Origin: an uncultured Bacteroidota bacterium
Lineage (GTDB): Bacteria; Bacteroidota; Bacteroidia; Bacteroidales; WCHB1-69
Direction: 5' to 3'
Assembly: GCA_902796805.1 (NCBI GenBank)
Contig: CADBQG010000007.1
Location: 61,256-125,255, forward strand
DNA: 64,000 bases
The position numbers were made by a program, and so were the translations under genes. This document shows, piece after piece, positions 7,754 to 56,621 of the stretch. The number at the start of each line of letters is the position of its first letter. The first letter of the stretch is position 1. Under the pieces are notes generated by a model. The model searched no databases and was not told where the DNA came from. It was given only the letters and a program-made list of their open reading frames with translations.

Positions 7754-9121
7754 ATGAAAAAGTTTATAGAGACAATCAAGAATATATTCAGGATTGAGGA
7801 TTTGAGAAAGCGGATCCTCTACACCTTGTTTATAATCCTGATATACCGTTTCGGCGCCCACGTGGTGCTTCCCGGCATCAACCCCGGCGCTCTCTCGGCG
7901 TTCACCAGCGCGGCGCAGAAGGGTCTTCTCGGAATGTTGGACCTCTTCTCGGGCGGCGCGTTCTCGAACGCCTCCATATTCGCGCTCGGCATAATGCCCT
8001 ACATCACGGCTTCCATCGTGGTGCAGCTTCTGACCCTCGCGGTGCCATACTTCCAGCGCCTTGCGAAAGAGGGTGAGAGCGGCCGCACCAAGATCAACCA
8101 GATCACGCGCTACCTCACCGTAGGCGTGCTTGCAGTGCAGGCTCCCGCCTACATCGCGCAGCTCACCGGCCAGTTCCCCGGAGCGATAGCGCCCTCTATG
8201 CTCGAGCACCGCGTGTTCGGCTTCTCGGCGTTCGCGATATGCGCGTTCATACTCTTGATTTCATCAACACTGTTCATAATGTGGCTCGGCGAGCGCATAA
8301 CCGACAACGGCATAGGCAACGGTATCTCCATCATAATCATGATAGGCATCATCGCGCGCCTGCCTTTCGCCCTCAAGGCTGAGTTCACCGCCCGCATCAC
8401 CGAGATGAACGGCGGCCCCATCATCTTCATCCTCGAGCTCGTGCTCATGATGATCATAATAGGCCTCTGTATCCTCCTCGTGCAGGGCACGCGCCGCATA
8501 CCGGTTCAATACGCGAAGCGCGTGGTCGGCAACAAGCAGTACGGCGGTGTCCGCAACTACCTCCCTCTCAAGGTGAACGCGGCCGGCGTTATGCCGATAA
8601 TCTTCGCCCAGGCTCTGATGTTCATACCGCTCACGTTCGTAAACATCTCGCAGGAGACAACATCGGGCTTCTGGAACAGCTTCATCGACTACAACAGGCT
8701 CGGATACAACATTGTGTTCTTCCTGATGATTATAGCGTTCACTTATTTCTACACCGCCATAACCATCAATCCGCAGCAGATTGCAGAGGACCTCAAGAAG
8801 AACAACGGTTTCATACCGGGCGTGAAGCCAGGGAAGCACACTGCGGAGTACATCGACAGGATAATGTCGAGGATCACACTCCCAGGCTCAATATTCCTCG
8901 GCATCGTGGCCGTTCTGCCGGCTGTGGTGCGCATGTTCGGCGTGAACCAGCAGTTCGCCCAGTTCTTCGGCGGCACGTCGCTGCTGATCATGGTGGGCGT
9001 TGTACTCGACACGCTCCAGCAGATTGAAAGCCATCTCCTGATGCGCCATTACGACGGCCTCACCAAGTCGGGCCGCATCAAGGGCCGCACCGGTGGCGGA
9101 ATATACGGAAACCAGATGTAG
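7754..9121 (+). CDS. secY: Preprotein translocase subunit SecY
   Basis: 10-TM profile, conserved N-terminus ...DLRKRILYTLFIILIYRFGAHVVLPGIN, synteny. Confidence 0.97.
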   Translation: MKKFIETIKNIFRIEDLRKRILYTLFIILIYRFGAHVVLPGINPGALSAFTSAAQKGLLGMLDLFSGGAFSNASIFALGIMPYITASIVVQLLTLAVPYFQRLAKEGESGRTKINQITRYLTVGVLAVQAPAYIAQLTGQFPGAIAPSMLEHRVFGFSAFAICAFILLISSTLFIMWLGERITDNGIGNGISIIIMIGIIARLPFALKAEFTARITEMNGGPIIFILELVLMMIIIGLCILLVQGTRRIPVQYAKRVVGNKQYGGVRNYLPLKVNAAGVMPIIFAQALMFIPLTFVNISQETTSGFWNSFIDYNRLGYNIVFFLMIIAFTYFYTAITINPQQIAEDLKKNNGFIPGVKPGKHTAEYIDRIMSRITLPGSIFLGIVAVLPAVVRMFGVNQQFAQFFGGTSLLIMVGVVLDTLQQIESHLLMRHYDGLTKSGRIKGRTGGGIYGNQM

Positions 9122-41175: not shown

Positions 41176-41213
41176 CATTATCTAAACATAATCATAAAGA
41201 TATTTGTATTTTC

Positions 41214-41237
41214 GCCCATCTTTGTATGGGCTTTTTT
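41214..41237 (+). terminator. Rho-independent terminator
   Basis: GCCCAT-ctttgt-ATGGGC hairpin followed by TTTTTT. Confidence 0.7.
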
Positions 41238-41284
41238 ATGATTTAGACTTTGGTACAATTCCTTTTAATAGTTTGCGATTTGTT

Positions 41285-44200
41285 ATGAAATTAAGAAATT
41301 GTTTCTTTATGATAATGTTGTTAACGACAAGTTTTCAGAGTTCTGCACAAACTCCAGAGGAGATTTCGAGAAAAATTACAGAAATTAAAAATATTCTCGA
41401 CAAATATGACGACAGCTACGACCGCGTGTGCCAAATCATCTCCGAGGAGATTGAACGAAGTGCAGACAATCCAGTGTACAGTTCAGTCTGGCACTGCTGC
41501 ATGGCGGATTTCTTTATGAACTACAAGGCGAACAACCTCTACAAGATTAGCAACATTACGACTCTCGGCGGCGACAAGCCAGAGGATTTCAAGGAGTGGA
41601 ATGCGAAAATGCTGACTGCCGAGGCGAAAAAGCATTTGTTCATCGCCTTGCAGAATAAGGATGAACTGTCGGCGGTGCCCGCCTCAGAATACTTGCCGAT
41701 TTTATTCAACAGCATTTATCCCCACAAAAAATCAGCGCAGTTCAAAATGGAATTGGATAAACTGACGTTGTACGACGTTGTGGCGCTGCACGCAGTCAAT
41801 TTTCTCGAAAATGAACAGAATGAATTGAAAGACAGTCAGTTCGATTTCTCACCTTGCTGGAATAATGAATCGTTCTTGAAAATTCCGATAGAAGTTTCAG
41901 TTGACGGAACGCGTACAGAAAACATACTCGCTCTTTACCAGGATATGACGTTGTTCCATTCTGTCAGGGAGAACCATGCAATTGTCGCCAAACTGACGCT
42001 TTCGAGACTTGAATTCATAGCCTCGGTGTCAACAGGGTTAGACAGCGACACGTATATCGACATTCTCACGGAGTGCCGCGACGCATTTCCGAAAGGCACG
42101 GCCAGCTGCATTACCTTCAAATTGGCAGAACTTCATTCAGCAAGGGCTATAGATCAAGCCATGGCGACTAATCACGTGCAAAGCAACGACCTTGTGAAGG
42201 CTGTTGAACTCTACATGGAAATTGTTGCCGGCGGCGATACGGAATTCCTTTCCGCCGCGAAAGAGAACCTCAAAACAATACAAACCCCGAAGATTTCGCT
42301 CGAGACCTTTGTTGAGCCAGTCGGAGTGGGTAGGGAGTCGTTCTGCATTCTTAAACACAAGAACATCTCAAAAGCCTCGCTGAAAGTCATAAAAGTCCCG
42401 GCGTCAATGGAACGGGCCATTTCGGAAGACCCGCATCTGGCGCAGAAAAACCTGCAGACCCTGCTGGCTTCCAATCCTGTATATGAGAAGCAGCTTACAC
42501 TTGAAAACAACCGCGACTACGCGACACACACGGCATTCGAGATATTGCCCGGACTCGGCGCGGGAACCTATATGCTGGTCGTTTCCAAGCAAAAGGATCT
42601 ACACTCGGATCCAAACCCATGTTACTCTGTATTCCAGGTTACGGACATCCATCTGTCATACAGGGAAGAGCAGGACAACGTGGTTAGATTCATGGCAGTG
42701 AACAGGGTTACCGGCAAGCCTATTAACGGTGCCAGAATCAGTCTGAAGAACAAAGGTACTGCCACCACACTGACAACCGGCAAGGACGGCATGGCTGCAT
42801 TCAAACTGAGCAAGGGACATAACACTGCGGACGCTGTGTCAGTAAGATGGGACGGGCAGGTGTTGTATTGCAGGGACTTCCATGCCTACGCTGTGGAAAG
42901 TGCAAGCAACAAGACTGAAGTGTGCCGTTTCTTTACAGACAGGAGTTTGTACCGTCCCGGCCAGACAGTGCATTTCAAGGGACTTATGGTTGAGAATGTC
43001 TCCGACAACGGAGGATCGGCATATACCAAATTGCTGTCAGGCAGGGTGGTTGAGGTTGAATTGTATGACGCGAACCACCAGGTTGTGAGGCGCGACACCT
43101 TCACCACCAATGAATACGGCTCTTTTAGCGGCGGTTTCGAGCTGCCGCTGGGAGGGATTACCGGGATTTTCAGCGTGGCGGTGAACGGACGGAACGTCTA
43201 CGGCTTCAATGTTGAGGAGTATAAACGGCCGTCGTTTGAGGTCAGAATTGACAGTCCCGAAGGGAAATGTGAACTTGGAGGGAAAGTAACAGTGAATGGA
43301 GTGGCGGAGGCTTTCGCCGGTTATCCCATAGCAGGTGCCGAGGTGAAATACACGGTGCGCAGGAGGATATCCCATGCGTGGTGGGATCGCTATAATATAG
43401 ACGACAGAATCGTGGCCGCCGGAGAGACAACAACAGATGAGGACGGAAACTTCAGCATATCTTTCGTGGCAGAGAGCCTTTCTGGAAAAGACAGGAACAA
43501 GATCCATATCTTCGAGATCGAGGCATCGGTAACTGACATAAACGGCGAAACCCGTCAAGCAATCTCAAGCATAAGGCTTTCAGAAAAAAGCCTGCTGATA
43601 AATTGCATTATCGACAGCGAAATTGAAAAAAAATCGTCGGATAACTTGTTCGAGGTGTCGCTCCTGAACCTTTACGGCAAGCGACAGAGCGGGGTGGTGG
43701 AGTACGAAATCCTCAAGTTAAAAACACCCGGAAAGTTTCTTCACGGAATATCGGTAGGCTCATGCCCAAAGGCTTCTGACGAAATGCGCCAAAAATTCCC
43801 CTATATAGCCTTTGAAGGAGAGAATGAAAAGGAAAAATGGGAGGAGTCGCATATTTACAAAGGGACACTTCCCGTGGAAAAAGACGGGACGACGTTTTTC
43901 GCTCTCCATTCACTTGAGAAGATGAAGAGCGGTTATTACAAAATTGTTTTCAGGTCAACTGACTCTTCAGGGAAAGTGGTCGAAGAGAGTGTTATAACAC
44001 ACGTGTACAGCAAAAACGACAGGGAATGCAGTGGATACGACGCTTTGTGGGTCAATGTCCCGGGCAGTGTGAGAGCCGGAAGAAAAGTCGGCGTGGAACT
44101 CGGCTCATATCTCGAGAAGGCAAGCGTGTTTTGCGAAATATCACTCAACGACTCGGTGCTGGTGTCGAGGTGGTTCGAGTTGGAAAAAGGAATGGTTGAG

Positions 44201-47158
44201 TTGCCGGTTTCAGTTGACGAGAACGCCAACGGGCAGTTGCACGTCCACCTGTACACGATCAACAACAACATAGAAACAACGATTGTCCGTGATATTGACA
44301 TTGTGAATGTTTCCAAGGACATAAGCTTTGAATTCCTAAGGTTCAGGGATGAGACGGTTCCCGGAGGCAGAGAGGAGTGGCAGATACGTCTTAAAGACAG
44401 CGATGGAAATCCGTTGTCGGCCGAAGTGCTGTGCTCGATGTACGACTGTTCGTTGGATGCAATAGGGGGAAGTAATGTTTACAGACTTGGCTTCGCGCCT
44501 ACATTCAACGTGCGTCCGCTGAATTTCCAGAAGCTTTTCCAAAGAAGCCTTTACACCGGCGACTATTTGCCGGAGTTCTACCATTCTCAACGGTACATCT
44601 ACAGGGCGCCCTATTTCAGGTTCTTTCCTGAGGCTTGGCGCTATAACAGGGTGTTCATGAGCAAGGCCGCCGTAGGTGCCGCCGAGTCCGGAGAAACGGT
44701 CATGGGTAACCGCGATGATTTGTTTGTGGAGGCTGCAGTTGCGGATTTTGTGGAATATGACAATCAAGAAGAATCTGCTGTTCAGACTTCAGCAGGGACG
44801 AATGCTTACCAGGAGATGTCGGTTGACGGCGGCAGTGCGTTGCCAGTGCGTTCAAATTTCGAGGAGACTGCTTTATTTCTGCCAGAACTGCGAACCGACG
44901 AAAACGGAGACATTTTCTTCAGTTTCACGATGCCGGATGCGCTCACAATGTGGAAGTTCCAGGGTGTGGCGCACACAAAAAAACTTCATTCCGGCGTGTT
45001 TGCCAAACTTGTTCGCGCCCGCAAGGATATGATGGTAGTGTCCAACATGCCGAGGTTCTTCAGGGAGGGCGACGAGATGACGCTTTCCGCCAAAGTTGTC
45101 AACATGAGCGACGTTGACCTGTGCGGCCACGTGACTTTAAGCTTCCGCGATGCCGTGAGCGGCAATCCCGTGGAACTCAACGAAGGCGATAACACCGCAC
45201 AGTATGATATCAAGGCCGGCACCTCTCAGGAGGTGGGATTCAGCATCGCGATACCTAAAGGGGTGCAGGCTCTTGTATGTCGGATAGTCGCGCACAACAC
45301 CGGTCCTGATGGATTCTCCGGCGACGGCGAAGAACGTGTGGTGCCGGTTCTTCCGAACAGAGCTTTGGTTACGGAGGCCATGCCGTTCTCGATTTCAGGC
45401 AAGGGCCATAAAATCTTCACATTCAAAAGATTGAAGGAAAGTTTCACTCCGGGTTGGAGTACCACATCCGAGAATTACAGTCTGACGGTGGAATGCACGC
45501 CGAACCCGCTTTGGTATGCAATACAGGCTTTGCCATACATGATGGAATACCCATACGAGTGCAACGAGCAGAAGTTCAGCCGTTACTATGCAAACGCGCT
45601 CGCCACCCATATTCTGAAGTCGAACCCGTCGATTGAGGCCATATTCAACAAGGCCCGGGCTGATTCCCCTGAAAGTTTCGTTTCGGCTTTGGAGAAGAAC
45701 CAGGAGTTAAAGCAGCTTGTGCTTGAAGAAACCCCTTGGCTTGTTGACGCGCAGCGCGAAAGCTCGTCTATGAAAAACATGGCGATTCTCTTCGACTTCA
45801 AAAAGATGGAGAAAGAGTCGGCAACGACAATCAACAGGCTCAAGAAGTCGCAGAACTCCGATGGCGGGTGGTCGTGGTTTGCCGGCGGACGCAGCTCGGA
45901 CTTCATCACTACCCATATCCTGGCTGGCTTCGGACATTTGGCCGCGCTCGGTGTAGCAATGCCGTCCTCGAAGAGTTTCCTCGACCGTGGTGTTGCGTAC
46001 ATTGACAGGCAGATGTATGAAAGATACAAGGAGAGGAAGAGACAGAAGTCAGACCCCGTGGCGGAGACACATTATCTTTATGCGCGCAGTTTCTTCAACA
46101 GCCGGATTCCTGACGAATACAGAAAAGCATACGATGAGACATACAGCGCAATGATTGCCGGTTGGAGTAAGGAAAGTTTTTATATGCAGGCTATGATTGC
46201 GCTCGCCGCGTGGCGCAACGGCGACAAGAGCGTTGCTGCCCAGATTGTAGCGCATCTCAAGTCCATGGCGCAAGAAGACGAAGAGAACGGGATGTTCTGG
46301 AAACGGCAGGGCGCGGGTCTCTTCTGGCACGAGCAGCCGATAGAACGCCAGGCTCTGCTGATAGAGGCATTCAACACGATAACCCCTGATGACAACGAGT
46401 CGATTTCGAAGATGCAGCTGTGGCTTCTGAAACAGAAACAGTCGCAGCATTGGGGAAGCACCAAGTCGACTACAGAAGCGGTTTATGCACTGCTAACAAG
46501 CCGTATTGTGTTGGAATCCACACAGATGAAGTTGAAAATTGGCGGCGAGACACTGCCTTCTGAAGCCATGAAGGCTGCCACGGGCAGTGGCTATTTCAAG
46601 ACTTCGTGGAAAGGTGGCGATATTGCCAAGGAGATGTCGGAGGTGCGCCTCGAGAAAAATAATGAAGGTCCGGCATGGGGCGCCCTTTACTGGAAATATT
46701 TCGAGGACTACGACAAAATTTCCGGCAGTGAAGACAAGAATTTAGGTGTGGGCAAAGAACTCTTTGTTGTCGAGAATGATGGAGAAGGCGAGGTCTTGCG
46801 CAAGGTTGCGGCGGGGAATACGTTGCATGTAGGCGACAAAGTGCGTGTGAGGATAATTCTTTCCGCCGATCGCGACATGGAGTACGTACATCTCAAAGAC
46901 CAGCGGGCTGCATGTTTCGAGCCGTTGAATGTGCTGTCGCAATACAAGTTCCAGGGCGGTCTCTTCTACTACGAGTCCACCCGCGACGCGTCCACTGATT
47001 TTTTTATCGACTATCTGCCAAAGGGAAAGCATGTGTTCGAGTACACTCTCTTTGCGACACAAAAAGGAGACTTTAGCAGTGGAATCACGCATGTGGAGTG
47101 TATGTACGCACCTGAATTCCAGTCTCATACAAAAGGTTTCAGGGTTGAAGTAAAGTGA
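41285..47158 (+). CDS. Bacterial alpha-2-macroglobulin family protein with thioester motif
   Basis: 1957 aa. Signal peptide MKLRNCFFMIMLLTTSFQSSAQ. MG-domain repeats. CNEQ thioester motif in PYECNEQKF (45560-45571). C-terminal receptor-binding-like domain. Confidence 0.88.
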   Translation: MKLRNCFFMIMLLTTSFQSSAQTPEEISRKITEIKNILDKYDDSYDRVCQIISEEIERSADNPVYSSVWHCCMADFFMNYKANNLYKISNITTLGGDKPEDFKEWNAKMLTAEAKKHLFIALQNKDELSAVPASEYLPILFNSIYPHKKSAQFKMELDKLTLYDVVALHAVNFLENEQNELKDSQFDFSPCWNNESFLKIPIEVSVDGTRTENILALYQDMTLFHSVRENHAIVAKLTLSRLEFIASVSTGLDSDTYIDILTECRDAFPKGTASCITFKLAELHSARAIDQAMATNHVQSNDLVKAVELYMEIVAGGDTEFLSAAKENLKTIQTPKISLETFVEPVGVGRESFCILKHKNISKASLKVIKVPASMERAISEDPHLAQKNLQTLLASNPVYEKQLTLENNRDYATHTAFEILPGLGAGTYMLVVSKQKDLHSDPNPCYSVFQVTDIHLSYREEQDNVVRFMAVNRVTGKPINGARISLKNKGTATTLTTGKDGMAAFKLSKGHNTADAVSVRWDGQVLYCRDFHAYAVESASNKTEVCRFFTDRSLYRPGQTVHFKGLMVENVSDNGGSAYTKLLSGRVVEVELYDANHQVVRRDTFTTNEYGSFSGGFELPLGGITGIFSVAVNGRNVYGFNVEEYKRPSFEVRIDSPEGKCELGGKVTVNGVAEAFAGYPIAGAEVKYTVRRRISHAWWDRYNIDDRIVAAGETTTDEDGNFSISFVAESLSGKDRNKIHIFEIEASVTDINGETRQAISSIRLSEKSLLINCIIDSEIEKKSSDNLFEVSLLNLYGKRQSGVVEYEILKLKTPGKFLHGISVGSCPKASDEMRQKFPYIAFEGENEKEKWEESHIYKGTLPVEKDGTTFFALHSLEKMKSGYYKIVFRSTDSSGKVVEESVITHVYSKNDRECSGYDALWVNVPGSVRAGRKVGVELGSYLEKASVFCEISLNDSVLVSRWFELEKGMVELPVSVDENANGQLHVHLYTINNNIETTIVRDIDIVNVSKDISFEFLRFRDETVPGGREEWQIRLKDSDGNPLSAEVLCSMYDCSLDAIGGSNVYRLGFAPTFNVRPLNFQKLFQRSLYTGDYLPEFYHSQRYIYRAPYFRFFPEAWRYNRVFMSKAAVGAAESGETVMGNRDDLFVEAAVADFVEYDNQEESAVQTSAGTNAYQEMSVDGGSALPVRSNFEETALFLPELRTDENGDIFFSFTMPDALTMWKFQGVAHTKKLHSGVFAKLVRARKDMMVVSNMPRFFREGDEMTLSAKVVNMSDVDLCGHVTLSFRDAVSGNPVELNEGDNTAQYDIKAGTSQEVGFSIAIPKGVQALVCRIVAHNTGPDGFSGDGEERVVPVLPNRALVTEAMPFSISGKGHKIFTFKRLKESFTPGWSTTSENYSLTVECTPNPLWYAIQALPYMMEYPYECNEQKFSRYYANALATHILKSNPSIEAIFNKARADSPESFVSALEKNQELKQLVLEETPWLVDAQRESSSMKNMAILFDFKKMEKESATTINRLKKSQNSDGGWSWFAGGRSSDFITTHILAGFGHLAALGVAMPSSKSFLDRGVAYIDRQMYERYKERKRQKSDPVAETHYLYARSFFNSRIPDEYRKAYDETYSAMIAGWSKESFYMQAMIALAAWRNGDKSVAAQIVAHLKSMAQEDEENGMFWKRQGAGLFWHEQPIERQALLIEAFNTITPDDNESISKMQLWLLKQKQSQHWGSTKSTTEAVYALLTSRIVLESTQMKLKIGGETLPSEAMKAATGSGYFKTSWKGGDIAKEMSEVRLEKNNEGPAWGALYWKYFEDYDKISGSEDKNLGVGKELFVVENDGEGEVLRKVAAGNTLHVGDKVRVRIILSADRDMEYVHLKDQRAACFEPLNVLSQYKFQGGLFYYESTRDASTDFFIDYLPKGKHVFEYTLFATQKGDFSSGITHVECMYAPEFQSHTKGFRVEVK

Positions 47159-47165
47159 TTTGATC

Positions 47166-48947
47166 ATGAAGGACACTGAAAATTCCATAAGGTTACAGCT
47201 CAGGTCGTTGCCCGAAAAACCCGGGGTTTACCGATTCTACGACGAAAGCGGGACGGTTATTTATGTCGGCAAGGCGAAGCGGCTCAAACGCAGGGTTTCG
47301 TCATATTTCAACAAAGAACACGACTCCGCCAAGGTTAGGATGCTCGTGTCGAAGGTGAGGAAAATAGAGACTGTTGTTGTTGACACAGAGTGGGACGCCC
47401 TGCTCCTTGAGAACAGCATGATAAAGCAGTTCAAGCCAAAATACAACATTCTTCTCAAGGATGACAAGACCTATCCTTGGATAGCCGTAACCAAAGAGCC
47501 TTATCCGAGAATCTTCCCAACGCGGCGCCCCGAGCCGGCCCGGATGCAACTTTTCGGCCCGTATTCTTCCGTAAAGCAGATGAACACCCTTCTTGAACTC
47601 ATCCAGGAGATGTTCCCGCTTAGGAACTGCAAGGTGCTGCGAAAGAACGACAGGCCGTGTATGCAATACCAGATTCGGAAATGCGCCGCTCCATGCTGCG
47701 GACTGATATCCGAAGACGAATACAGGGACAACATACGAAAGGCTGTACAGATCATAAAGGGCGACAGAAAAGAAGTTGTGCGCCAGTTGAAGGATGAGAT
47801 GATGAATTACGCAGACGAGTGGAAGTTCGAGCAGGCAGCCGAGGTCAAGAAAAAGTTAGAGTCGTTGGAGAACTTCATTGGGAAGTCGGTGGTGGTGAAC
47901 CCGTCGCTGACCAACCTCGACGTGTTTGGCACGGACGAGGATGACGAGAGTGTGTACATCAGTTTCCTGCGAATTGTTGACGGTTCCGTGGTGCAGGCGC
48001 ACACCTTCGAGGTCGACAACATGATAGACAGGACCAGGGAGGACGCGCTCTGGGCCGGAATCCTTGAAGTCAGGGAGCGCCTTGGCGGGGTCTCGCCCAC
48101 GCTGATAGTGCCTTTCCTGCCTTCGATACAACCCGTTGGGTGGGAGTTCCAGGTGCCACATCGCGGCGACAAGCACAAGCTTCTGGCCTTGGCTGTTCAT
48201 AACGCGCACTTCTACATGTTGGAGAAGAAAAAACGACAGGATCTTGTGGATCCCGAAAGGCGCGGACTGAGGGTGCTTGAGGCTTTGCAGAAAGCTCTCG
48301 GCATGAAGGTGCTGCCCCGCCGCATCGAGTGCTTCGACAACTCAAACACGCAGGGTGAGGATCCGGTTGCGGCAATGAGCTGCTTCATAGACGGAAAACC
48401 CGCAAAAAAGGAATACCGGCACTTCAACATAAAGACTGTGGTCGGGGCCGACGACTTCGCGTCGATGGAGGAGGTCATATACCGCAGATACCACAGACTT
48501 CTCGAGGAGGGCAAGCCGCTACCTGAACTCGTTGTGATTGACGGCGGCAAGGGCCAGCTCAACGCCGCGTGGAAGTCGGTGCAGGCCCTCGGAATCGAGG
48601 ACCGGCTCATGATGGTGGGCATTGCAAAACGTTTAGAAGACATCTACAAGGTTGGCGACGACCTGCCTGTGTACATCGACAAGCGCTCGGAGGCGCAGAA
48701 ACTGCTGCAGCATCTTCGCGACGAGGTACACCGCTTCGGCATAACACATCACAGAAAACGCCGTTCCAAGACGAGTATCAAGTCGGCGCTCGACGACATA
48801 CCAGGTGTCGGCAAGGTGCTGAAAGGCAGGTTACTCCGGAAATACAGGAGCGTTGCCAACATCGCCGCCGCCCCGGAGGAGGAACTCGTTGAAATCGTAG
48901 GTACGAAGAGGGCTGCTGTTCTCAAAGAAAGACTTGGCAGAACTTAG
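47166..48947 (+). CDS. uvrC: Excinuclease ABC subunit C
   Basis: GIY-YIG N-terminus GVYRFYDESGTVIYVGKAKRLKRRVSSY, UvrBC domain, C-terminal HhH. Confidence 0.95.
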   Translation: MKDTENSIRLQLRSLPEKPGVYRFYDESGTVIYVGKAKRLKRRVSSYFNKEHDSAKVRMLVSKVRKIETVVVDTEWDALLLENSMIKQFKPKYNILLKDDKTYPWIAVTKEPYPRIFPTRRPEPARMQLFGPYSSVKQMNTLLELIQEMFPLRNCKVLRKNDRPCMQYQIRKCAAPCCGLISEDEYRDNIRKAVQIIKGDRKEVVRQLKDEMMNYADEWKFEQAAEVKKKLESLENFIGKSVVVNPSLTNLDVFGTDEDDESVYISFLRIVDGSVVQAHTFEVDNMIDRTREDALWAGILEVRERLGGVSPTLIVPFLPSIQPVGWEFQVPHRGDKHKLLALAVHNAHFYMLEKKKRQDLVDPERRGLRVLEALQKALGMKVLPRRIECFDNSNTQGEDPVAAMSCFIDGKPAKKEYRHFNIKTVVGADDFASMEEVIYRRYHRLLEEGKPLPELVVIDGGKGQLNAAWKSVQALGIEDRLMMVGIAKRLEDIYKVGDDLPVYIDKRSEAQKLLQHLRDEVHRFGITHHRKRRSKTSIKSALDDIPGVGKVLKGRLLRKYRSVANIAAAPEEELVEIVGTKRAAVLKERLGRT

Positions 48948-48957
48948 ATCTGAGAGT

Positions 48958-48980
48958 AGGAGTTCACGCTTCCAAGCGTG
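48958..48980 (+). repeat. Copy C of the 23-nt palindromic motif AGGAGTTCACGCTTCCAAGCGTG
   Basis: Begins 11 nt after the uvrC stop. Same orientation as copies A and B. Confidence 0.75.
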
Positions 48981-49056
48981 CAATATTTTATAACCCGAGC
49001 AGTAGCGGCGTGATTAATCGCGCCGAGATTGATGAAGACCGTTTGTCTTGCGGTTG

Positions 49057-50445
49057 TTATTTGAAGATGAACCGTTTGAAGTCGAGTCCAAGTGCGTAAA
49101 CCATAAGGATAATCAGAAGCACAAAGCCTATGGTGTTGGCTATTCCGAGGAATTTGTCGCTGGGTTTCCTGCCCGTTATCATCTCGACAAGAATAAAGAG
49201 GATGTATCCGCCGTCAAGGCCTGGTATGGGTATGATGTTCATGAAGGCGAGTATGATTCCCAGGAGTGCGGTCATGCTCCAGAACCTGTACCAGTCCCAG
49301 ACCTTGGGGAATATGCTTCCTATCGTGAGGAAGCTGCCCAACTGTGTGGCGCCCTCCTTGGTGAAGACAATCTTGAACTGCTTTATGTAGTTGGCAAGTG
49401 TGGTGAATCCCATTTTTGTGCCGGTGGGTATCGACTGCCAGAAGGAGTAGTCCACATGCACCACGTCGAAGAAATCGGATGGTTGGCGGTAGGCCACGCC
49501 GATGTTTCCGTTGGAGTCGATTGTCACGAGGCTGTGGCACAGGCTGTCGTTGCGGATGTAGTCGATTTGCAGTTGGCTGTTCTTGTTTTCGGTGAAAGTC
49601 TTCTTGAAGTCGAAGAAGCAGAACATGGCGGAGTCGTTCACGCCCACGAGGCTGTCGCCGCGCATTAGTCCGGACTCGGCGGCTGGAGTTCCGGCGAGCA
49701 CGCTGTCGATGACGAAGGGTATCCTGTAGTTGCAGAACATCGACGACGACCCGGAGCCTACAATCTTCCTGGCGAGGTCTTTGGGGACGTCAACGACGGT
49801 TACCACCCCGTCTCTCTCAACTGTAACGGTACTCACGTTGTCGAGGAGCATGGCATTGGCGAAGTCTCCTATGGTCTTGGGCTTCACGGTGTCTATGTAT
49901 AGGATTTTGTCGCCGTTCCTGAATCCTGCGTCCTGCATCTCCTGCGAGAACTCAAGGCCGTAAGCCGCGTTTTCGAGAGGAATGTAGTCGGTGCCCCAGT
50001 GGAAGCACATAAGGATGTAGATTACGATAGCTGTGATGAAGTTGACCAAAACGCCGCCGATTATTATAAGGAAGCGCTGCCAAGCCGGTTTCGCGCGGAA
50101 CTCCCAGTCGTGTACCTCGCTGCCGAGATCCGACGACTTGGTGGTCTCGTCAACCATGCCGTTTATGGAGCAGTAGCCGCCGAGCGGCAGCCATCCAAGC
50201 CCCCATTCGGTCGATTCAGGGTGGTTGGCCCATTCTTCAGGCGCTTTGCCGGAGAAGAAGCTGAAGTGCATTCTCCCTCCAAAACGCTTCATCCTCATTA
50301 TCGAAAATCCCGGGTTGAAGAACACGTAGAACTGGTCAACGCGGGTCTTGAATATCTTCGCGAAGGTGAAATGCCCAAGTTCGTGAGTCACCACCAAAAA
50401 GGTCAGACTTGCCAAAAGCCCTAATATCTGCATAGAAATGCCCAT
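49057..50445 (-). CDS. rseP: RIP (site-2) zinc metalloprotease RseP
   Basis: HELGHF motif in TM1, PDZ region, C-terminal NIIPIPGLDGG motif. Confidence 0.92.
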   Translation of the reverse strand: MGISMQILGLLASLTFLVVTHELGHFTFAKIFKTRVDQFYVFFNPGFSIMRMKRFGGRMHFSFFSGKAPEEWANHPESTEWGLGWLPLGGYCSINGMVDETTKSSDLGSEVHDWEFRAKPAWQRFLIIIGGVLVNFITAIVIYILMCFHWGTDYIPLENAAYGLEFSQEMQDAGFRNGDKILYIDTVKPKTIGDFANAMLLDNVSTVTVERDGVVTVVDVPKDLARKIVGSGSSSMFCNYRIPFVIDSVLAGTPAAESGLMRGDSLVGVNDSAMFCFFDFKKTFTENKNSQLQIDYIRNDSLCHSLVTIDSNGNIGVAYRQPSDFFDVVHVDYSFWQSIPTGTKMGFTTLANYIKQFKIVFTKEGATQLGSFLTIGSIFPKVWDWYRFWSMTALLGIILAFMNIIPIPGLDGGYILFILVEMITGRKPSDKFLGIANTIGFVLLIILMVYALGLDFKRFIFK

Positions 50446-50468
50446 ACTCTGCTCTTTTTTTCAGGCCG

Positions 50469-50476
50469 CAAAGATA
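50469..50476 (-). promoter_or_regulatory. Bacteroidota -7 promoter box (TATCTTTG on minus strand)
   Basis: caaagata on the plus strand, 24 nt upstream of the rseP start. Confidence 0.45.
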
Positions 50477-50593
50477 CTCAAAATATCCTCATGCCGGGAA
50501 TAAAGTGCCTTTTTGTCGCAAAGGACTGTCATTGTGTCGCCCTCCACTGTCAGAAAGTCCTTGAATTCCGAAGAAAAAACAATGCCGAACGGT

Positions 50594-50609
50594 TGGCACG
50601 CGCTTTGCA
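50594..50609 (+). promoter_or_regulatory. Sigma-54 (RpoN) -24/-12 promoter
   Basis: TGGCACGCGCTTTGCA matches TGGCACG-N4-TTGCW exactly, with canonical GG/GC spacing. Lies 80 nt upstream of hsp20. Confidence 0.65.
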
Positions 50610-50688
50610 TTATATTGGTCGGTTCGCAAGGCGAGAGCCGAGAAGAACCGGAAAATAATAAAGTACAATAAAAAAATGGAGGTGTATT

Positions 50689-51114
50689 ATGTTACCAGTA
50701 ATGTTTAAGAACAGTTGGTTTCCGACAGTATTTGAAGATTTCCTGAACAACGACTTTATGCCTCGTGCAAATACAACGGCACCGGCAGTCAATGTGAAGG
50801 AGGATGAAAAGGCCTACACAATGGAGGTGGCCGCCCCGGGCATCAAGAAGGAGTTCTGCCGCGTAAGCATCAACGACGAGGGCAACCTCAACGTAGCCAT
50901 CGAGAACAAGATGGAGCACAAAGAGAGTGAAAAGAAACACCACTATCTGCGCCGTGAGTTCTCCTACACTAACTACGAGCAGGTTTACACTCTGCCTGAG
51001 GATGTTGACAAGGAGCACATCGAGGCCAAGGTCGAACACGGAATCCTCACAATCACCCTGCCGAGGGTGAAGAAAGAGGAGGCTAAACTCTCACGCACAA
51101 TTGCCATAGGGTAA
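50689..51114 (+). CDS. Hsp20/alpha-crystallin family small heat-shock protein
   Basis: Alpha-crystallin domain (VNVKEDEKAYTMEVAAPGIKKEF...EHGILTITLPR). Preceded by the SD-like GGAGGTG at 50678-50684. Confidence 0.92.
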   Translation: MLPVMFKNSWFPTVFEDFLNNDFMPRANTTAPAVNVKEDEKAYTMEVAAPGIKKEFCRVSINDEGNLNVAIENKMEHKESEKKHHYLRREFSYTNYEQVYTLPEDVDKEHIEAKVEHGILTITLPRVKKEEAKLSRTIAIG

Positions 51115-51144
51115 TCGCCAATCTTCTAAAGAGGGAAGAAAAAA

Positions 51145-51175
51145 AGCCGCACCAATCACGGTGCGGCTTTTTTTG
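51145..51175. terminator. Bidirectional rho-independent terminator
   Basis: AGCCGCAC-caatcacg-GTGCGGCT hairpin flanked by A7 upstream and T8 downstream. Serves the convergent hsp20 and Crp/Fnr genes. Confidence 0.8.
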
Positions 51176-51216
51176 TGCATTCAGTATTTCGCAACTGATA
51201 CAATAAACCTGCCATT

Positions 51217-51744
51217 TCATGGCAGAATATACCCATTTTGGTCCTTTCTCAACGAGCCTTCTGCCACCATCTCCGACAGGGTGCGGCTGAGAGAAGGGCG
51301 GGCTACACCCATCTGCTCGGCCGCGTTCGCCACATTGGTGATTGTCTTGTGCTGTCCAAGGTAGTTCAGTACTCGGTTGCGGAACCCCATGACGGCGAAC
51401 GAGTTAAGCTTGTTCGTCAGAAATCGAGTCTTGTCTGAGATGATCTGCAGGAAAGTGTTGAGTACATCTGAATGACGTTGCATGAAAGTGAGGAACGCGT
51501 GGCGGTTCACATACAGCAACGAAGAATTGCCCACCGACCTGACCTCAACAGGCACTCTCCTGTCTGAGGCGTAAAGAAATGCAGGGGCGAGCACGAAAGG
51601 CGCGTCGATGTACTCCACCACAATCACGCGCCCCTCGTCGCTGCCCATTAGTGTTACAACCCGCCCGGATATAAGAAGCATAAGCGCGTCAATGCCAAGC
51701 TTGCCGGTTTCCTGACATTGGAAACAAAACATCTTTTCATTCAT
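51217..51744 (-). CDS. Crp/Fnr family regulator with truncated sensor domain and an Hcp-like N-terminal tag (probable deletion fusion)
   Basis: C-terminal HTH (ITNVANAAEQMGVARPSLSRTLSEM) and partial cNMP-type beta-roll. The first residues MNEKMFCFQCQETGK resemble the Hcp N-terminus. Confidence 0.7.
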   Translation of the reverse strand: MNEKMFCFQCQETGKLGIDALMLLISGRVVTLMGSDEGRVIVVEYIDAPFVLAPAFLYASDRRVPVEVRSVGNSSLLYVNRHAFLTFMQRHSDVLNTFLQIISDKTRFLTNKLNSFAVMGFRNRVLNYLGQHKTITNVANAAEQMGVARPSLSRTLSEMVAEGSLRKDQNGYILP

Positions 51745-51799
51745 TGCTCTTGATTTAATACGTTCTTCTTTTGTTTGTTTATTTTATTCATTTCACCCG

Positions 51800-51807
51800 C
51801 AAAAGTA
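51800..51807 (-). promoter_or_regulatory. Bacteroidota -7 promoter box (TACTTTTG on minus strand)
   Basis: caaaagta on the plus strand, 56 nt upstream of the start at 51744. Confidence 0.4.
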
Positions 51808-51931
51808 TAATTAAAAAGTGGCGTGATACGTGATAAATGTTACGCTTTTCTTTTTTTTAAGACTAAATAATCACCAGTACTGACTTTGAAGTTTACGTTG
51901 TTTCATTTTTTACCATGTTCTATAAAAATGC

Positions 51932-51939
51932 TATCTTTG
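51932..51939 (+). promoter_or_regulatory. Bacteroidota -7 promoter box (TATCTTTG)
   Basis: 35 nt upstream of the ATG at 51974. Confidence 0.45.
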
Positions 51940-51973
51940 CAACCGTTTTTTTTGCTAAAGACTCTTTGCCAAG

Positions 51974-53503
51974 ATGAAAGATGGATTTTTTTCGTTTTCA
52001 GAGATTGAGGAGATAGTTTTTGAAGGGAAAAAGCTGTCACCGGAAGACCTTCCAATCGAGAAGGTTGCAGAGTGTTATGATTTTCTCAAAGACTTCTCCA
52101 CCGATAAAATTATATACGGCATAAACACAGGTTTCGGGCCAATGGCTCAATGGCGCGTTGAAGACAAAGACCTCAAGGCCTTGCAATACAATATTATACG
52201 CAGTCATTCAACCGGTGCGGGCGAACCTCTTCCCGACAAGTACGTGAAAGCTGCAATGGTGGCCAGGCTTGGCACTTTCCTGCAGGCCAGGTCGGGTGTG
52301 CACACCGACCTCGTGGAGCTTCTCGTGGAGATGATAAACGAAGAGATTTTCCCGATGATACCCCAGCACGGCAGTGTTGGCGCAAGCGGCGACCTCGTGC
52401 AGCTCGCGCATCTCGCCCTTGCGATGATTGGTGAGGGCGTGGTGCATTTCAAGGGCGAATGGCGTCAGGCAAGGGATGTGTTCGCGGAATGCGGACTGAA
52501 TCCTTTGGAGATACACATCCGTGAAGGCCTCTCGATAACCAACGGCACGAGCGTGATGACGGGAATATCGATAGTGAACCAGCACGAAGCTGAAAAGCTT
52601 CTCAACCTCGCAGTGTTGGCAAGCGTGATGATGAACGAAATTGCCGGCTCATACGACGACTTGATGTCGGAACAGCTCAACGAGGTGCGCCGCCACTACG
52701 GCCAGACGAAGATAGCGGAGGCGATGCGCGTGGTGGCCGAGGGAAGCAGAAGGCTTCAAAAACGCGAACATGCGCTCTACGACGGAAGCCACATTGAGAA
52801 GACTTTCGGGCACAAGGTGCAGGCGTACTATTCGCTGCGCTGCGTGCCGCAGATTCTCGGCCCCGTGCTTGAAACCCTCGACAATTGCAGACGGGTGATA
52901 GAGGAGGAGGTGAACTCGGCCTGCGACAACCCCATTGTCGACCCCGTGTCGAGAAACGTGTACCACGGAGGCAATTTCCACGGTGACTACATCTCCATCG
53001 AGCAGGACAAGGTCAAGATGGCGATGGTGCGGCTTGTCATGACTATGGAGAGGCAGCTGAACTATCTCTTCCACGACAAAATCAACGGGATTCTGCCGCC
53101 GTTCCTCAACTTGGGGAAGCTCGGGCTGAACTACGGTATGCAGGCCTGCCAGTTCACAGCCACGTCGACCACAGCCGAATGCCAGACACTCGCCATGCCG
53201 AACTACGTGCACAGCATACCTAACAACAACGACAACCAGGACATCGTGAGTATGGGTACGAACACCGCCCTTCTAACCAAGCGCGTTATCGACAACGCCT
53301 GGCAGGTGATGGCCATCCATTTCATCGCGCTTGCGCAGGCAGTGGACTGCCTCGACATAGACGGCTCGCTGTCTGTTGCGACCAAAGACGTCTATGAAAA
53401 AGTCCGCGGTATATGTCCGAAATTCGTCGAAGACACCCCTTTTTATGAGGAGATACGCAATGTGGAATCATTTTTAAGACAATATAGAGTAAAGGCAATA
53501 TGA
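51974..53503 (+). CDS. MIO-dependent aromatic amino acid/histidine ammonia-lyase (HAL/PAL/TAL family)
   Basis: YGINTGFG, and the MIO-forming GSVGASGDLVQLAH (Ala-Ser-Gly triad). 509 aa. Confidence 0.88.
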   Translation: MKDGFFSFSEIEEIVFEGKKLSPEDLPIEKVAECYDFLKDFSTDKIIYGINTGFGPMAQWRVEDKDLKALQYNIIRSHSTGAGEPLPDKYVKAAMVARLGTFLQARSGVHTDLVELLVEMINEEIFPMIPQHGSVGASGDLVQLAHLALAMIGEGVVHFKGEWRQARDVFAECGLNPLEIHIREGLSITNGTSVMTGISIVNQHEAEKLLNLAVLASVMMNEIAGSYDDLMSEQLNEVRRHYGQTKIAEAMRVVAEGSRRLQKREHALYDGSHIEKTFGHKVQAYYSLRCVPQILGPVLETLDNCRRVIEEEVNSACDNPIVDPVSRNVYHGGNFHGDYISIEQDKVKMAMVRLVMTMERQLNYLFHDKINGILPPFLNLGKLGLNYGMQACQFTATSTTAECQTLAMPNYVHSIPNNNDNQDIVSMGTNTALLTKRVIDNAWQVMAIHFIALAQAVDCLDIDGSLSVATKDVYEKVRGICPKFVEDTPFYEEIRNVESFLRQYRVKAI

Positions 53504-54228
53504 AATATGCGCTTATAACGGGCGGTTCCCGAGGAATAGGACGCGCCGTGGCCATCAGGCTGGCCAAAGACGGGTTCTCAGTGATAGTGAACTACGTGAG
53601 CAATGACCAGGCCGCGAAGGAAACCAAGCGGCTCGTTGAAGAGGGTGGGGGAATCTGCGAACTCATGAAGTTCGACATCGCCGACGGACAAGCTGTTGAG
53701 AAAGCCCTCCGTCAATGGGAGGACGAGCACCCGAACGAGTTTATATCTGTGCTGGTGAACAATGCCGGGACTCGCCGCGACAACCTCATGATGATGATGA
53801 GCGAGGACGACTGGCGCAGTGTCATCGACACGCCCCTCAACGGTTTCTTTTTCATTACGAAAAGACTGATAAAACCGATGCTGTCGCATCGTGAGGGCAG
53901 AGTTGTCAACATGGCCTCCCTGTCAGGACTGAAGGGAGTTCCAGGCCAGACGAACTACAGCGCGGCCAAGGCGGCAATCATAGGAGCCACCAAAGCACTT
54001 GCCCAGGAGGTGGCCAAGAGGAAAGTTACAGTGAATGCCGTGGCCCCTGGCTTCATCGCCACCGACATGACCAAGGATCTCGACGAGGAGACTCTAAAGA
54101 AGATGATACCGGCCGCGAGGTTCGGCACGCCCGACGAAGTGGCCGCTGCGGTCTCGTTCCTGGCAAGTCCCGAATCGTCGTACATCACCGGACAGGTCAT
54201 CCAAGTGAACGGTGGACTTTATTCATAG
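53500..54228 (+). CDS. SDR family 3-oxoacyl-ACP reductase (FabG-like)
   Basis: TGGSRGIGRA cofactor motif, NNAG, and YSAAKAA catalytic motif. ATGA overlap with the ammonia-lyase stop. Confidence 0.9.
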   Translation: MKYALITGGSRGIGRAVAIRLAKDGFSVIVNYVSNDQAAKETKRLVEEGGGICELMKFDIADGQAVEKALRQWEDEHPNEFISVLVNNAGTRRDNLMMMMSEDDWRSVIDTPLNGFFFITKRLIKPMLSHREGRVVNMASLSGLKGVPGQTNYSAAKAAIIGATKALAQEVAKRKVTVNAVAPGFIATDMTKDLDEETLKKMIPAARFGTPDEVAAAVSFLASPESSYITGQVIQVNGGLYS

Positions 54229-54298
54229 CCGGGCAGGTTAGTGTTGTGGGTGATTTGTTGATGTAGAGGAATTTTAGAAGAAAATCAGAAACAGATAT

Positions 54299-55531
54299 AT
54301 GAACAACAGAAGGGTTGTAATCACCGGAATGGGGATATGGTCGTGCATCGGGACATCGAAAGACGAGGTGCTGGAGTCTTTGAGAATCGGCAGATCAGGA
54401 ATAGGGCGTGAAGACATACGTTTGGGATATGGCTACCAGTCTGACTTGACGGGGATAGTGCCAGACCCCGATTTGAAGCCGCTGCTCCACCGCAGGCTTC
54501 GCACGGGCATGTCGCAGGAGGCAGAGTACTCATATATGGCGGCGCGCGAGGCCTTCGCACAAGCGTTGGTTGACGAGAAGTTCCTTGCTGAGCGTGAAGT
54601 CGGCATAATCTTCGGCAACGACTCGTCTGCGAAGCCGGTAATCGAGGCCGAAAAGTTGATGTCGGAGAAGCGCGACTCGGCGCTGCTCGGCTCGGGGCTG
54701 ATATTCCAGTCGATGAATTCAACGGTGAACATGAACCTTAGCAGCATCTTCGGCCTGCGTGGGATAAACTTCACTGTTAGTGCGGCCTGTGCCAGTGGCA
54801 GCCATTCGGTGGGTCTGGGGTTTTTGATGATAAAGCAGGGTCTTCAGGACGTGGTGCTCTGCGGCGGTGCGCAGGAGGTGAACCATTTTTCCATGTTCAC
54901 GTTCGACGCACTGGGTGCCTTCTCAAAGCGTATGTCTGAGCCAGAAAGAGCCTCGAGACCCTTCGACCGCGACCGCGACGGGCTCATACCGAGCGGCGGC
55001 GCGGCGGCCTTGGTCCTCGAGGAATACGAGAGCGCAATCCGCCGCGGCGCACCGATACTTGCAGAGGTTACCGGATACGGCTTCTCCTCCAACGGCGGCG
55101 GCATCTCGCAACCCTCCGACGACGGAAGCGTGATCGCCATGAAGAGGGCGCTCGATTCCGCCAACCTGTCGCCAGAAGACATCGACTATATCAACGCCCA
55201 TGCCACAAGCACTCCGCAGGGAGACATGTTCGAAGCCATGGCCCTCGACAGGCTGTTCCACGGAACCCACGCCCTTGTGAGCTCCACGAAAGGCATGACA
55301 GGCCACGAATGCTGGATGGCGGGAGCGAGCGAGATAGTCTATTCCGTTCTTATGATGCAGAACGACTTTGTGGCGCCAAACGTGAACTTCGAGAATCCCG
55401 ACCAGTACTCCGAAAAGCTTAACATCGCCGCGGAAACCACACCATGCAGGCTCAACAATGTGATAAGCAATTCATTCGGCTTCGGAGGCACAAATTCGGC
55501 AATAGTGTTGCAACAAGTTAAAGACAAATAA
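54299..55531 (+). CDS. Beta-ketoacyl synthase (KAS I/II-like, Cys-His-His)
   Basis: VSAACASGSHS (Cys), NAHATSTPQGD (His), TGHECWMAGASE (His), C-terminal SFGFGGTNSAIVL. Confidence 0.88.
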   Translation: MNNRRVVITGMGIWSCIGTSKDEVLESLRIGRSGIGREDIRLGYGYQSDLTGIVPDPDLKPLLHRRLRTGMSQEAEYSYMAAREAFAQALVDEKFLAEREVGIIFGNDSSAKPVIEAEKLMSEKRDSALLGSGLIFQSMNSTVNMNLSSIFGLRGINFTVSAACASGSHSVGLGFLMIKQGLQDVVLCGGAQEVNHFSMFTFDALGAFSKRMSEPERASRPFDRDRDGLIPSGGAAALVLEEYESAIRRGAPILAEVTGYGFSSNGGGISQPSDDGSVIAMKRALDSANLSPEDIDYINAHATSTPQGDMFEAMALDRLFHGTHALVSSTKGMTGHECWMAGASEIVYSVLMMQNDFVAPNVNFENPDQYSEKLNIAAETTPCRLNNVISNSFGFGGTNSAIVLQQVKDK

Positions 55532-55532
55532 T

Positions 55533-56621
55533 ATGAACCTCAGCGAATCACTCAAAGACAGATATTCACGGGATGACATTTCCGCTTACAACGCTCAGTA
55601 CCTTGCGCAGGTCATAGCCTTCGGCCCGGTAATCTTCCAGGTTGCACGCATAATGCTCAAGTGGGGCATTCTGGAAATGATTGCTGACGAACCGCTTACA
55701 ATTGACGAGGTGGCCGGAAGAGCCGGTGTGTCAAAATATGCCGCCAAGTGCCTGCTCGAGTCTTCACTCACAATGTCGATATTGAAGGTGAATCCAGATA
55801 CAGGCAAGTTCTCGCTCTCCAAGACAGGCTTTTTCCTTCTCAATGACAAGTCTACAAGGGTGAACCTCGACTTCAACCACGATGTGAATTATATCGGGCT
55901 TTTCAATCTCGAGGAGTCCCTCAAAGAAGGCAGGCCGGCAGGGCTGAAGCATTTCGGCGACTGGCCCACGGTATATGAAGGGCTGTCGTCGTTGCCCGCC
56001 AAAGTGCAGGACAGCTGGTTTGCCTTCGACCACTACTACAGCGACTGCTCTTTTGAAGAGGCCTTGGAAGTGGTTTTCTCGAAGCCGGTGAGGCATCTCA
56101 TGGATGTGGGAGGCAACACCGGAAGATGGGCCTTGCAGTGTGTTGCGCATGACCCAAAGGTTCAAGTTACCATTGTCGATCTCCCGCAACAACTGCAGAT
56201 GATGCGTCAGCAAACTGCCGGAAAGCCCGGTGCGGAACGCATCCACGGTTATCCTGCCAATCTCCTCAACGACGAGTCAGTGTTCCCTTCAAACGTGCAT
56301 TTCGACGCAATATGGATGAGCCAGTTCCTCGACTGTTTCTCAGAAGAAGAGATAACCGGCATACTGAAGCGCGCTGCCAAAATTATGTCCGAAGACACAA
56401 AACTCTACATCATGGAGACTTTTTGGGACAGGCAGCGTTTCGACACTTCTGCCTTCTGCCTTACACAGATAAGCCTCTATTTCACGGCAATAGCCAACGG
56501 CAACAGCAAGATGTACCACTCCGACGACCTTGTAAGGCTCGTTCAGGAGTCGGGACTGTCGGTTGAGACAATCCACGACAATCTCGGCATGGGACATTCC
56601 ATAATGGTGTGTGCTAAATGA
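55533..56621 (+). CDS. Class I SAM-dependent O-methyltransferase (Methyltransf_2/COMT-like with N-terminal dimerisation-wHTH)
   Basis: SAM motif I LMDVGGNTG, downstream DAIWMSQFLDCF, N-terminal wHTH-like LTIDEVAGRAGVSKYAAKCLLE. Starts 1 nt after the KS stop. Confidence 0.8.
   Translation: MNLSESLKDRYSRDDISAYNAQYLAQVIAFGPVIFQVARIMLKWGILEMIADEPLTIDEVAGRAGVSKYAAKCLLESSLTMSILKVNPDTGKFSLSKTGFFLLNDKSTRVNLDFNHDVNYIGLFNLEESLKEGRPAGLKHFGDWPTVYEGLSSLPAKVQDSWFAFDHYYSDCSFEEALEVVFSKPVRHLMDVGGNTGRWALQCVAHDPKVQVTIVDLPQQLQMMRQQTAGKPGAERIHGYPANLLNDESVFPSNVHFDAIWMSQFLDCFSEEEITGILKRAAKIMSEDTKLYIMETFWDRQRFDTSAFCLTQISLYFTAIANGNSKMYHSDDLVRLVQESGLSVETIHDNLGMGHSIMVCAK

Follow-up and report, generated by a model that had tools for sequence, protein, structure and literature searches.

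The window analysed here, a 64-kb stretch (64,000 nucleotides) of one contig from an uncultured Bacteroidota bacterium, carries on its minus strand (window 51217..51744) an ORF of 175 codons whose product starts with MNEKMFCFQCQETGKLGIDALMLLISGRVV and whose parts and surroundings are listed in Table 1. This gene is a chimera: the promoter, the 5' untranslated region and the first 13 codons of an hcp gene are joined to an HcpR-family regulator from which the N-terminal ~50 residues are missing. A sequence-only reading of this DNA had described an ORF with an Hcp-like start that enters a beta-roll in its middle and ends with a C-terminal HTH, and the ORF and its profile matches showed this description to be accurate. 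The same reading had estimated the sensor domain to be 30-40 residues shorter than usual, which holds for the total length of the protein, but not for its regulator-derived part, from which about 48-53 residues are missing when it is mapped onto the HcpR protein of P. gingivalis (PgHcpR).

Table 1. Features of the chimeric gene and its surroundings, with positions counted from the first nucleotide of the window.
Feature	Position	Strand	Evidence or remark
Chimeric ORF, 175 aa + stop, hcp stub in frame with truncated HcpR-type regulator	51217..51744	-	Same ORF and junction in L003, L004, L167-L177
hcp-derived coding stub, codons 1-13 (MNEKMFCFQCQET) and first base of codon 14	51705..51744	-	13/13 aa identical to L008 Hcp N-terminus
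Junction zone, codons 14-19 (GKLGID)	51688..51704	-	hcp DNA identity stops at 51705; Crp/Fnr profile matches from residue 19
Sensor-domain remnant, codons 20-91, C-terminal part of beta-roll including flap	51472..51687	-	Alignment, PgHcpR mapping; polymorphism 4N:1S
1-bp deletion site, codon 28 (GGGCGGG -> GGGCGG in L167-L171)	51662	-	Window allele intact here
Dimerisation helix and hinge, codons 92-120	51385..51471	-	AF2 helix 92-118; maps to PgHcpR P127-L156
Winged helix-turn-helix (wHTH) DNA-binding domain, codons 121-175	51220..51384	-	HTH_Crp_2, HTH_IclR, MarR_2; pLDDT 80-90; 2N:5S
Recognition-helix motif RPSLSR, codons 149-154, Arg-Pro at CRP R180/E181 positions	51283..51300	-	Invariant in aligned homologues
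Degenerate HcpR operator GTAACATTTATCAC, consensus GTAACnnnnGTTAC, 2 mismatches, both in right half-site	51830..51843	-	Aligns with L008 perfect box
Bacteroidetes-type -7 element TACTTTTG (TAnnTTTG), 22 nt downstream of operator	51800..51807	-	Register as in hcp loci
hcp-type 5' untranslated leader, last ~30 nt BLAST-alignable to hcp leaders	51745..51799	-	
Two terminator-like hairpins past chimera stop codon, in 102-nt gap with convergent hsp20	51147..51226	-	

The N-terminus of the chimera was compared with Hcp at the protein and at the DNA level. The Hcp protein encoded at the metagenomic locus L008 begins with MNEKMFCFQCQETAGCVGC, and a tblastn search of the whole 64-kb window with this protein returned a single match, at 51744-51706 (13/13 identical residues, E = 1.6e-4). 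The proposal that the N-terminus is derived from Hcp, which depended on a match within the first 15 residues, is therefore borne out, since residues 1-13 match Hcp beyond chance. When the 20-aa N-terminus was searched against the PDB, the top 4 of 5 matches (E up to 10) were hybrid cluster proteins aligned at their own N-termini, including a D. vulgaris chain that aligns from residue 1 as MFCFQCQETAK; with E-values of 0.06-0.6, these matches are weak taken alone. The first 39 nt of the stub differ from the L008 hcp gene at 3 positions, all synonymous, and the first 40 nt of the chimera match Bacteroidales hcp genes, the identity to MNEK-type hcp genes stopping after ...CAGGAAACCG at window 51705. 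MNEK-type Bacteroidales hcp genes share their promoter, leader and first 13 codons with the chimera. The chimera has no Prismane domain (PF03063) in a Pfam search and only two of the four cysteines of the N-terminal cluster motif, to which relatives add two (e.g. ...QETAGCVGCKISGVCGK). The rest of hcp was not found anywhere in the 64-kb window by tblastn with the full Hcp query. Among the hcp genes of the metagenomic loci L043-L162, a few read as frameshifted directly after QETAK (for example QETAKRFSVA, QETAKGQDVP and QETAKRHRMY), which could correspond to sequencing errors or to more hcp pseudogenes, and the gene caller places the hcp start of L005 30 codons late, though its 5' DNA matches that of L008.

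Past the junction, the protein is a beheaded Crp/Fnr-type regulator. Profile searches with Pfam and NCBIfam models located HTH matches at residues 124-172, a cNMP_binding match that starts at profile position 18 of 89 and scores 20.4 bits against a cut-off of 27.5 bits, and an NCBIfam CRP match that starts at position 42 of 214. In a database search, full-length homologues (194-216 aa) were at most 56% identical to the chimera and covered 87-89% of the query, its N-terminus never being covered, while the top match, P0001, is itself 175 aa long and 98% identical. An alignment showed that the ~50 residues which precede the ...C-R-S-L-L-L-L... strand in the homologues are swapped for MNEKMFCFQCQETGKLGI in the chimera, so that the complete N-terminal sensing domain (M1-L151 in PgHcpR) is not present. 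The AF2 model of the chimera (pTM 0.48) shows the elements that remain, the stability of the truncated fold being beyond its reach.

Several observations place this regulator part next to HcpR. Using the family profile against the PDB, the best solved relative was the P. gingivalis HcpR (9DAY, 2.1e-38), followed by 1O5L and then by the HcpR sensing domain (5V30/6NP6, 6.5e-28), and the top Foldseek match of the AF2 model was 9DAY_B (1.8e-10). All 28 aligned homologues have the same recognition helix, GVARPSLSR. An Arg-Pro pair at the positions of CRP R180/E181 was previously tied to the HcpR2 branch and to the GTAACnnnnGTTAC motif (Rodionov 2005, PMC1274295), and Pro187, Ser188 and Arg191 of the B. 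thetaiotaomicron HcpR have AlphaFold3-predicted contacts with the recognition site (PMC13370916). With an offset of 35, residues M33, P54 and P65/V66 of the chimera correspond to Met68, Pro89 and Pro100/Val101 of PgHcpR, in which Met68 is a functionally important heme ligand (residue roles from PMC12750200); the junction corresponds to PgHcpR residues ~49-54, and the positions of PgHcpR Met145, Lys146 and His149 are occupied by T, N and N.

The genomic surroundings of the relatives point in the same direction. The regulator P0025 and hcp are immediate divergent neighbours, P0003 has a DUF2249-DUF1858-Fer4-hcp-PNPOx operon on its divergent side, and P0002 has the same operon type there, with a flavodiiron protein in place of hcp. 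The regulator part of the chimera shares 47-53% identity with the regulators that adjoin MNEK-type hcp genes. Both pieces of the chimera belong to one family of modules made of an MNEK-type hcp and its HcpR. A comparison of L001/L002 with L005/L007/L008 also showed that the closest full-length homologues control a divergent DUF2249-DUF1858-ferredoxin operon whose fourth gene is either hcp (then a PNPOx-like gene) or a flavodiiron protein (then DUF2492), a modular swap of NO-detoxifying enzymes.

The promoter of the chimera is that of an hcp gene. Upstream of the L008 hcp gene, a perfect GTAACTTTTGTTAC box is followed, after 22 nt, by TAATTTTG, and the window shows GTAACATTTATCAC (51843-51830), again 22 nt, and then TACTTTTG (51807-51800). 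The motif TAnnTTTG is the -7 promoter element of Bacteroidetes. A box with at most one mismatch was found in 88 of 117 metagenomic hcp loci, and exactly 22 nt separate it from the first TAnnTTTG in 77 of these 88. Matches to the operator with 2 mismatches are expected by chance 17 times in the window, where 20 were found, so that the score alone is not significant and the window box is taken as the hcp operator because its register matches that of genuine hcp promoters. A search of 51745-51930 for an HcpR/FNR-type palindrome had been suggested: a candidate does lie there in the hcp register, but its right half-site carries two mismatches. The box GTAACATTTATCAC is degenerate, with ATCAC instead of GTTAC as right half-site in every allele, and the L177 allele has two further changes (GTAATATTTATCTC); the -7 box is retained in all alleles. 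From the known geometry of Bacteroidetes promoters, the box centre, ~29 nt upstream of the -7 element, would lie at roughly -41, which is a class II activator position. In B. thetaiotaomicron, deletion of hcpR abolishes hcp transcription (PMC13370916). A promoter of this kind, its operator and its activator both being damaged, would be expected to be weak or silent. Beyond these elements, BLAST searches of the promoter region against the metagenomic hcp loci detected similarity over only ~30 nt upstream of the ATG, and the parent hcp gene was not found among them.

The chimera is fixed at one locus. Ten protein variants, spread over about 27 contigs of many different samples, make up the 90%-identity cluster of P0001, which includes two proteins from NCBI MAGs, MDY6325768.1 and MDY6346899.1, that are annotated "Crp/Fnr family transcriptional regulator". 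The window protein aligns with P0052 at 100% identity; an exact look-up of the window protein for the contig encoding it gave no match. Every fetched locus (L003, L004, L167-L177) has the same junction, which varies between alleles by point substitutions only (K15M, L16I and I18V), and, where the contig reaches far enough, the same neighbours (KAS-FabG-HAL, the chimera, Hsp20, RseP and UvrC), the locus DNA being 97.6-98.8% identical to the window. Outside its own 90% cluster, the Hcp-like N-terminus was found in none of 48 homologues, and all 48 have a normal sensor N-terminus. It had been considered that full-length regulators of related genomes might share the N-terminus, which would then be a native feature of the family; these 48 homologues show that it is not. 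Nor does an assembly chimera fit, because many independent assemblies, 1-2% apart in sequence, contain the junction, and the chance that the N-terminus is native to a regulator subfamily, or that the junction arose during assembly, is thus practically nil. The AAGCTT at the junction (a HindIII site, window 51697-51702), which could hint at a cloning artefact, is taken as a coincidence, considering that the junction is found in many wild metagenome assemblies. A literature search found no report of an hcp-hcpR fusion like this one.

The sequence-only reading had explained the junction by one deletion that took away nearly all of hcp together with the 5' end of an hcpR lying downstream. Such a single step needs hcp and hcpR in tandem on the same strand, an order that was seen in none of 63 linked pairs. 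These pairs come from at least 120 metagenomic hcp loci collected by an exact 26-mer scan of metagenomes with the hcp 5' end, which, being exact-only, is silent on the conservation of the 26-mer itself: a regulator homologue is linked to hcp in 63 of them, either divergent upstream (53) or convergent downstream (10). In L005, L007 and L008, regulator and hcp are divergent through an operon. Each of the at least 120 loci holds an ordinary hcp gene, with no fusion among them and no Hsp20, RseP, UvrC, HAL or FabG nearby. A single deletion is no more likely than an inversion or a rearrangement in several steps. Where the two genes lie on opposite strands, an inversion that breaks hcp at codon ~14 and hcpR at codon ~50 would give exactly this fusion and, with it, a reciprocal hcpR'-'hcp product. 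The hcp body and the N-terminal 60 aa of the regulator were both searched for in the 64-kb window and not found, so that a reciprocal product would be elsewhere or lost. Weak matches to the lost pieces near 9100 lie inside secY/map and are due to chance.

A comparison of the locus with related genomes, which had been suggested for those that retain hcp and hcpR, revealed no syntenic ancestor on either flank. On the HAL side, 34 GTDB genomes (HAL 58-82% identical, 10-kb flanks) have no regulator, hcp, hsp20, rseP or uvrC upstream of HAL, and, on the RseP side, sister species with an 83-87% identical RseP have wholly different neighbours. The gene order around HAL and rseP is unconserved when L009-L042 and L178-L181 are compared with window 47160-53503. 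Since gene order is fluid on both flanks, a larger rearrangement is plausible, its mechanism being inferred. The GC composition showed AT-rich intergenic DNA only and no sign of a foreign origin. The ends of three independent contigs (L178-L180) all fall 500-690 nt upstream of rseP, so that a repeat or a variable segment may lie there. The genes for a HAL/aromatic ammonia-lyase, FabG, KAS and a methyltransferase stand in a row (window 51974-56621, plus strand); this row looks like an aryl-polyene or flexirubin-type pigment/lipid cluster, and the HAL-FabG adjacency is retained in most of the 34 related Bacteroidales genomes. The very large ORF just upstream of uvrC (window 41204-47158, plus strand) encodes 1984 aa and starts with what resembles a signal peptide.

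Polymorphism was then used to estimate the selection acting on the chimera, comparing the window allele with five other allele groups and using part of KAS, FabG, HAL, Hsp20, RseP and part of UvrC as a flanking set. Of the changes that segregate in the chimera, 14 are nonsynonymous and 6 synonymous (pN/pS 0.72), against 33 nonsynonymous and 113 synonymous changes in the six flanking genes together (pN/pS 0.04-0.15 each; Fisher's exact p = 4e-5 for chimera versus flanks). The chimera does not show the purifying selection of a gene that is maintained intact. The ORF is open in 5 of the 6 allele groups, and in the sixth (L167-L171) a 1-bp deletion at 51662 ends it after 29 aa (MNEKMFCFQCQGTGMLGVDALMLLISGRL*). 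At least 9 contigs, coming from at least 5 samples, carry this frameshift allele, more contigs than for any other allele, and gene callers give it a 143-aa product starting at M33. Substitutions that hit family-conserved positions or introduce a Pro into the dimerisation helix are R32L and L121F in the window allele and L95P and S115P in other alleles.

When the counts for the alleles of L003 and L167-L177 were split by domain (window 51220-51384 versus 51385-51744), 5 of the 7 synonymous changes fell in the DNA-binding domain and 12 of the 14 nonsynonymous ones in the remainder, which may reflect residual constraint on the wHTH or chance. Codons 1-120 (12N:2S) are compatible with neutrality (p = 0.54) and unlike the flanks (p = 4e-6); within them, the stub and junction changes E12G, K15M, L16I and I18V are 4N:0S, and the dimerisation helix and hinge, L95P and S115P included, are 4N:1S. 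The DNA-binding domain (2N:5S) resembles the flanks and departs both from neutrality (p = 0.012) and from the remainder of the gene (p = 0.017). As the partition was picked after inspection of the data and the counts are small, these values give no more than a hint of residual constraint on the wHTH. The total diversity of codons 1-120 (~3.9%) is below the synonymous diversity of the flanks (~9.7%), so that constraint on this part may not be zero. In a relative-rate test, the distance of the regulator part to outgroup homologues did not exceed that of its intact relatives, and this part deviates at 7 of 42 conserved columns, compared with 5-6 of 45 for P0002-P0004. This lack of excess divergence indicates that the fusion is either young or partly constrained. 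An ancient decay of the regulator part is ruled out by the same two tests, which are compatible with a recent relaxation.

What the lineage carries at this locus is therefore a gene of chimeric anatomy, fixed at one place, with relaxed constraint, a frameshift allele and a decayed operator. We consider it likely that a chromosomal rearrangement destroyed the hcp/hcpR nitrosative-stress module of one uncultured Bacteroidales lineage at species level, a gut or rumen species, and left this gene behind as a scar; the product of the gene is most likely not maintained for function. In the course of this event, an hcp promoter with its HcpR operator, -7 box and leader, together with 13 hcp codons, would have been joined in frame to an HcpR-type regulator at about residue 50, which would have removed the N-terminal part of the sensor, while the heme-ligand Met, along with the dimerisation helix and the wHTH, stayed in place. 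A single deletion could have done so only from a tandem hcp-hcpR order, seen in no relative; otherwise, an inversion or a multi-step event would be needed. Since the sensor fold is incomplete, since the promoter is activator-dependent with a mutated half-site and since the sequence is drifting, the product has probably lost its function.

The other reading that deserves weight is that a truncated regulator, whether the fusion itself or the product starting at M33, still dimerises and binds HcpR boxes, acting constitutively or as a dominant-negative protein in an autoregulatory loop from the hcp promoter. An ORF that is in frame and open in most alleles, a -7 box kept in all of them and a wHTH whose recognition helix is intact and invariant at the protein level in every allele would all fit such a regulator, as would the flank-like 2N:5S of the DNA-binding domain and the retention of the dimerisation helix and of the equivalents of Met68 and Pro100/Val101. 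However, the overall pN/pS of the gene, the radical Pro substitutions in the dimerisation helix, the commonness of the frameshift allele and the degeneration of the gene's own operator in every allele argue against it, and the loss of ~50 N-terminal sensor residues would normally compromise folding. We hold this reading to be unlikely, and it is the hint of wHTH constraint that keeps its probability low rather than negligible. The sequence-only reading had gone further in this direction and had envisaged an autoregulated, sensor-blind regulator: an hcp promoter does stand in front of the regulator, but near-neutral polymorphism, a common frameshift allele and an operator degenerate in all alleles speak against a working loop. 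The term "sensor-blind" is itself misleading, because M33 and part of the pocket (Pro100/Val101) are retained, other pocket positions being different, and the loss concerns the N-terminal part of the sensor fold.

The cysteines of the stub could also be given a role. The chimera has two Cys in total, C7 and C10, both in the CFQC of the Hcp stub, and, as the dimerisation helix is kept, the CxxC of two subunits might pair in the dimer as a four-Cys metal or Fe-S site, making an FNR-like redox or NO sensor that would replace the lost part of the heme domain. FNR-type regulators do sense through an N-terminal Cys cluster. However, the cubane cluster of Hcp uses four Cys in one chain and the [4Fe-4S] cluster of FNR three N-terminal Cys and a central one, four in each case against two here; residues 1-20 have an AF2 confidence of 43-52, the stub changes freely between alleles and the frameshift severs it from the rest of the protein in a common allele. 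Such a new sensor is highly improbable. In strains with an intact ORF, there would be a slight chance that the chimera or the M33-start product is expressed from the residual hcp promoter and binds HcpR operators independently of any signal or in a dominant-negative manner, possibly with a two-Cys intersubunit metal site.

Compared with known kinds of genes, the chimera shares with HcpR proteins (HcpR2; PgHcpR 9DAY/6NP6 and the B. thetaiotaomicron HcpR) the profile and fold neighbourhood, the RPSLSR helix and the equivalents of Met68, Pro89, Pro100 and Val101; homologues adjoin hcp, and GTAACnnnnGTTAC boxes precede hcp. Unlike them, it has 13 Hcp residues instead of ~50 N-terminal sensing residues, a sub-threshold cNMP_binding domain, an hcp promoter in place of its own, relaxed selection and a frameshift allele. 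Its recognition helix and its nearest relative are thus those of an HcpR, while the complete sensing domain and the maintenance under selection are lacking. The likeness to FNR, an N-terminal CxxC ahead of a Crp/Fnr body, is superficial: the chimera has only two Cys in the whole protein, and the segment that carries them is Hcp-derived and not conserved among alleles. The closest counterparts are the chimeric or fusion pseudogenes that result from deletions or inversions, which are likewise in-frame joints of two unrelated gene fragments, each truncated compared to intact homologues, with a truncated domain, a pN/pS close to neutral and, in part of the population, an indel that disables the gene. 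The chimera differs from the usual fusion pseudogenes in that its partners are a regulator and its own target gene, and in that its DNA-binding domain may keep some constraint. It fits the known kind of a chimeric pseudogene or rearrangement scar, with nothing new in its working, and is a genuine, probably non-functional and modest case.

A regulator fused to its own target resembles, on paper, a purpose-built autoregulatory circuit, and polymorphism shows a gene that is mostly in decay. The locus documents cleanly, at the population level, the splicing of a regulator to the promoter and start codon of its target by a rearrangement. It is also a warning for annotation, since MDY6325768.1 and MDY6346899.1 are named Crp/Fnr regulators despite a beheaded sensor domain and since one common allele is frameshifted. 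If the reading of a live regulator were true, the locus would be a natural example of a regulator capturing the promoter and leader peptide of its target to form a new feedback circuit. For the organism, our findings suggest that at least one Hcp-based nitrosative-stress module has disappeared from this Bacteroidales lineage, a loss that, unless there is a second copy, would bear on its ecology in guts that are inflamed or rich in nitrate.
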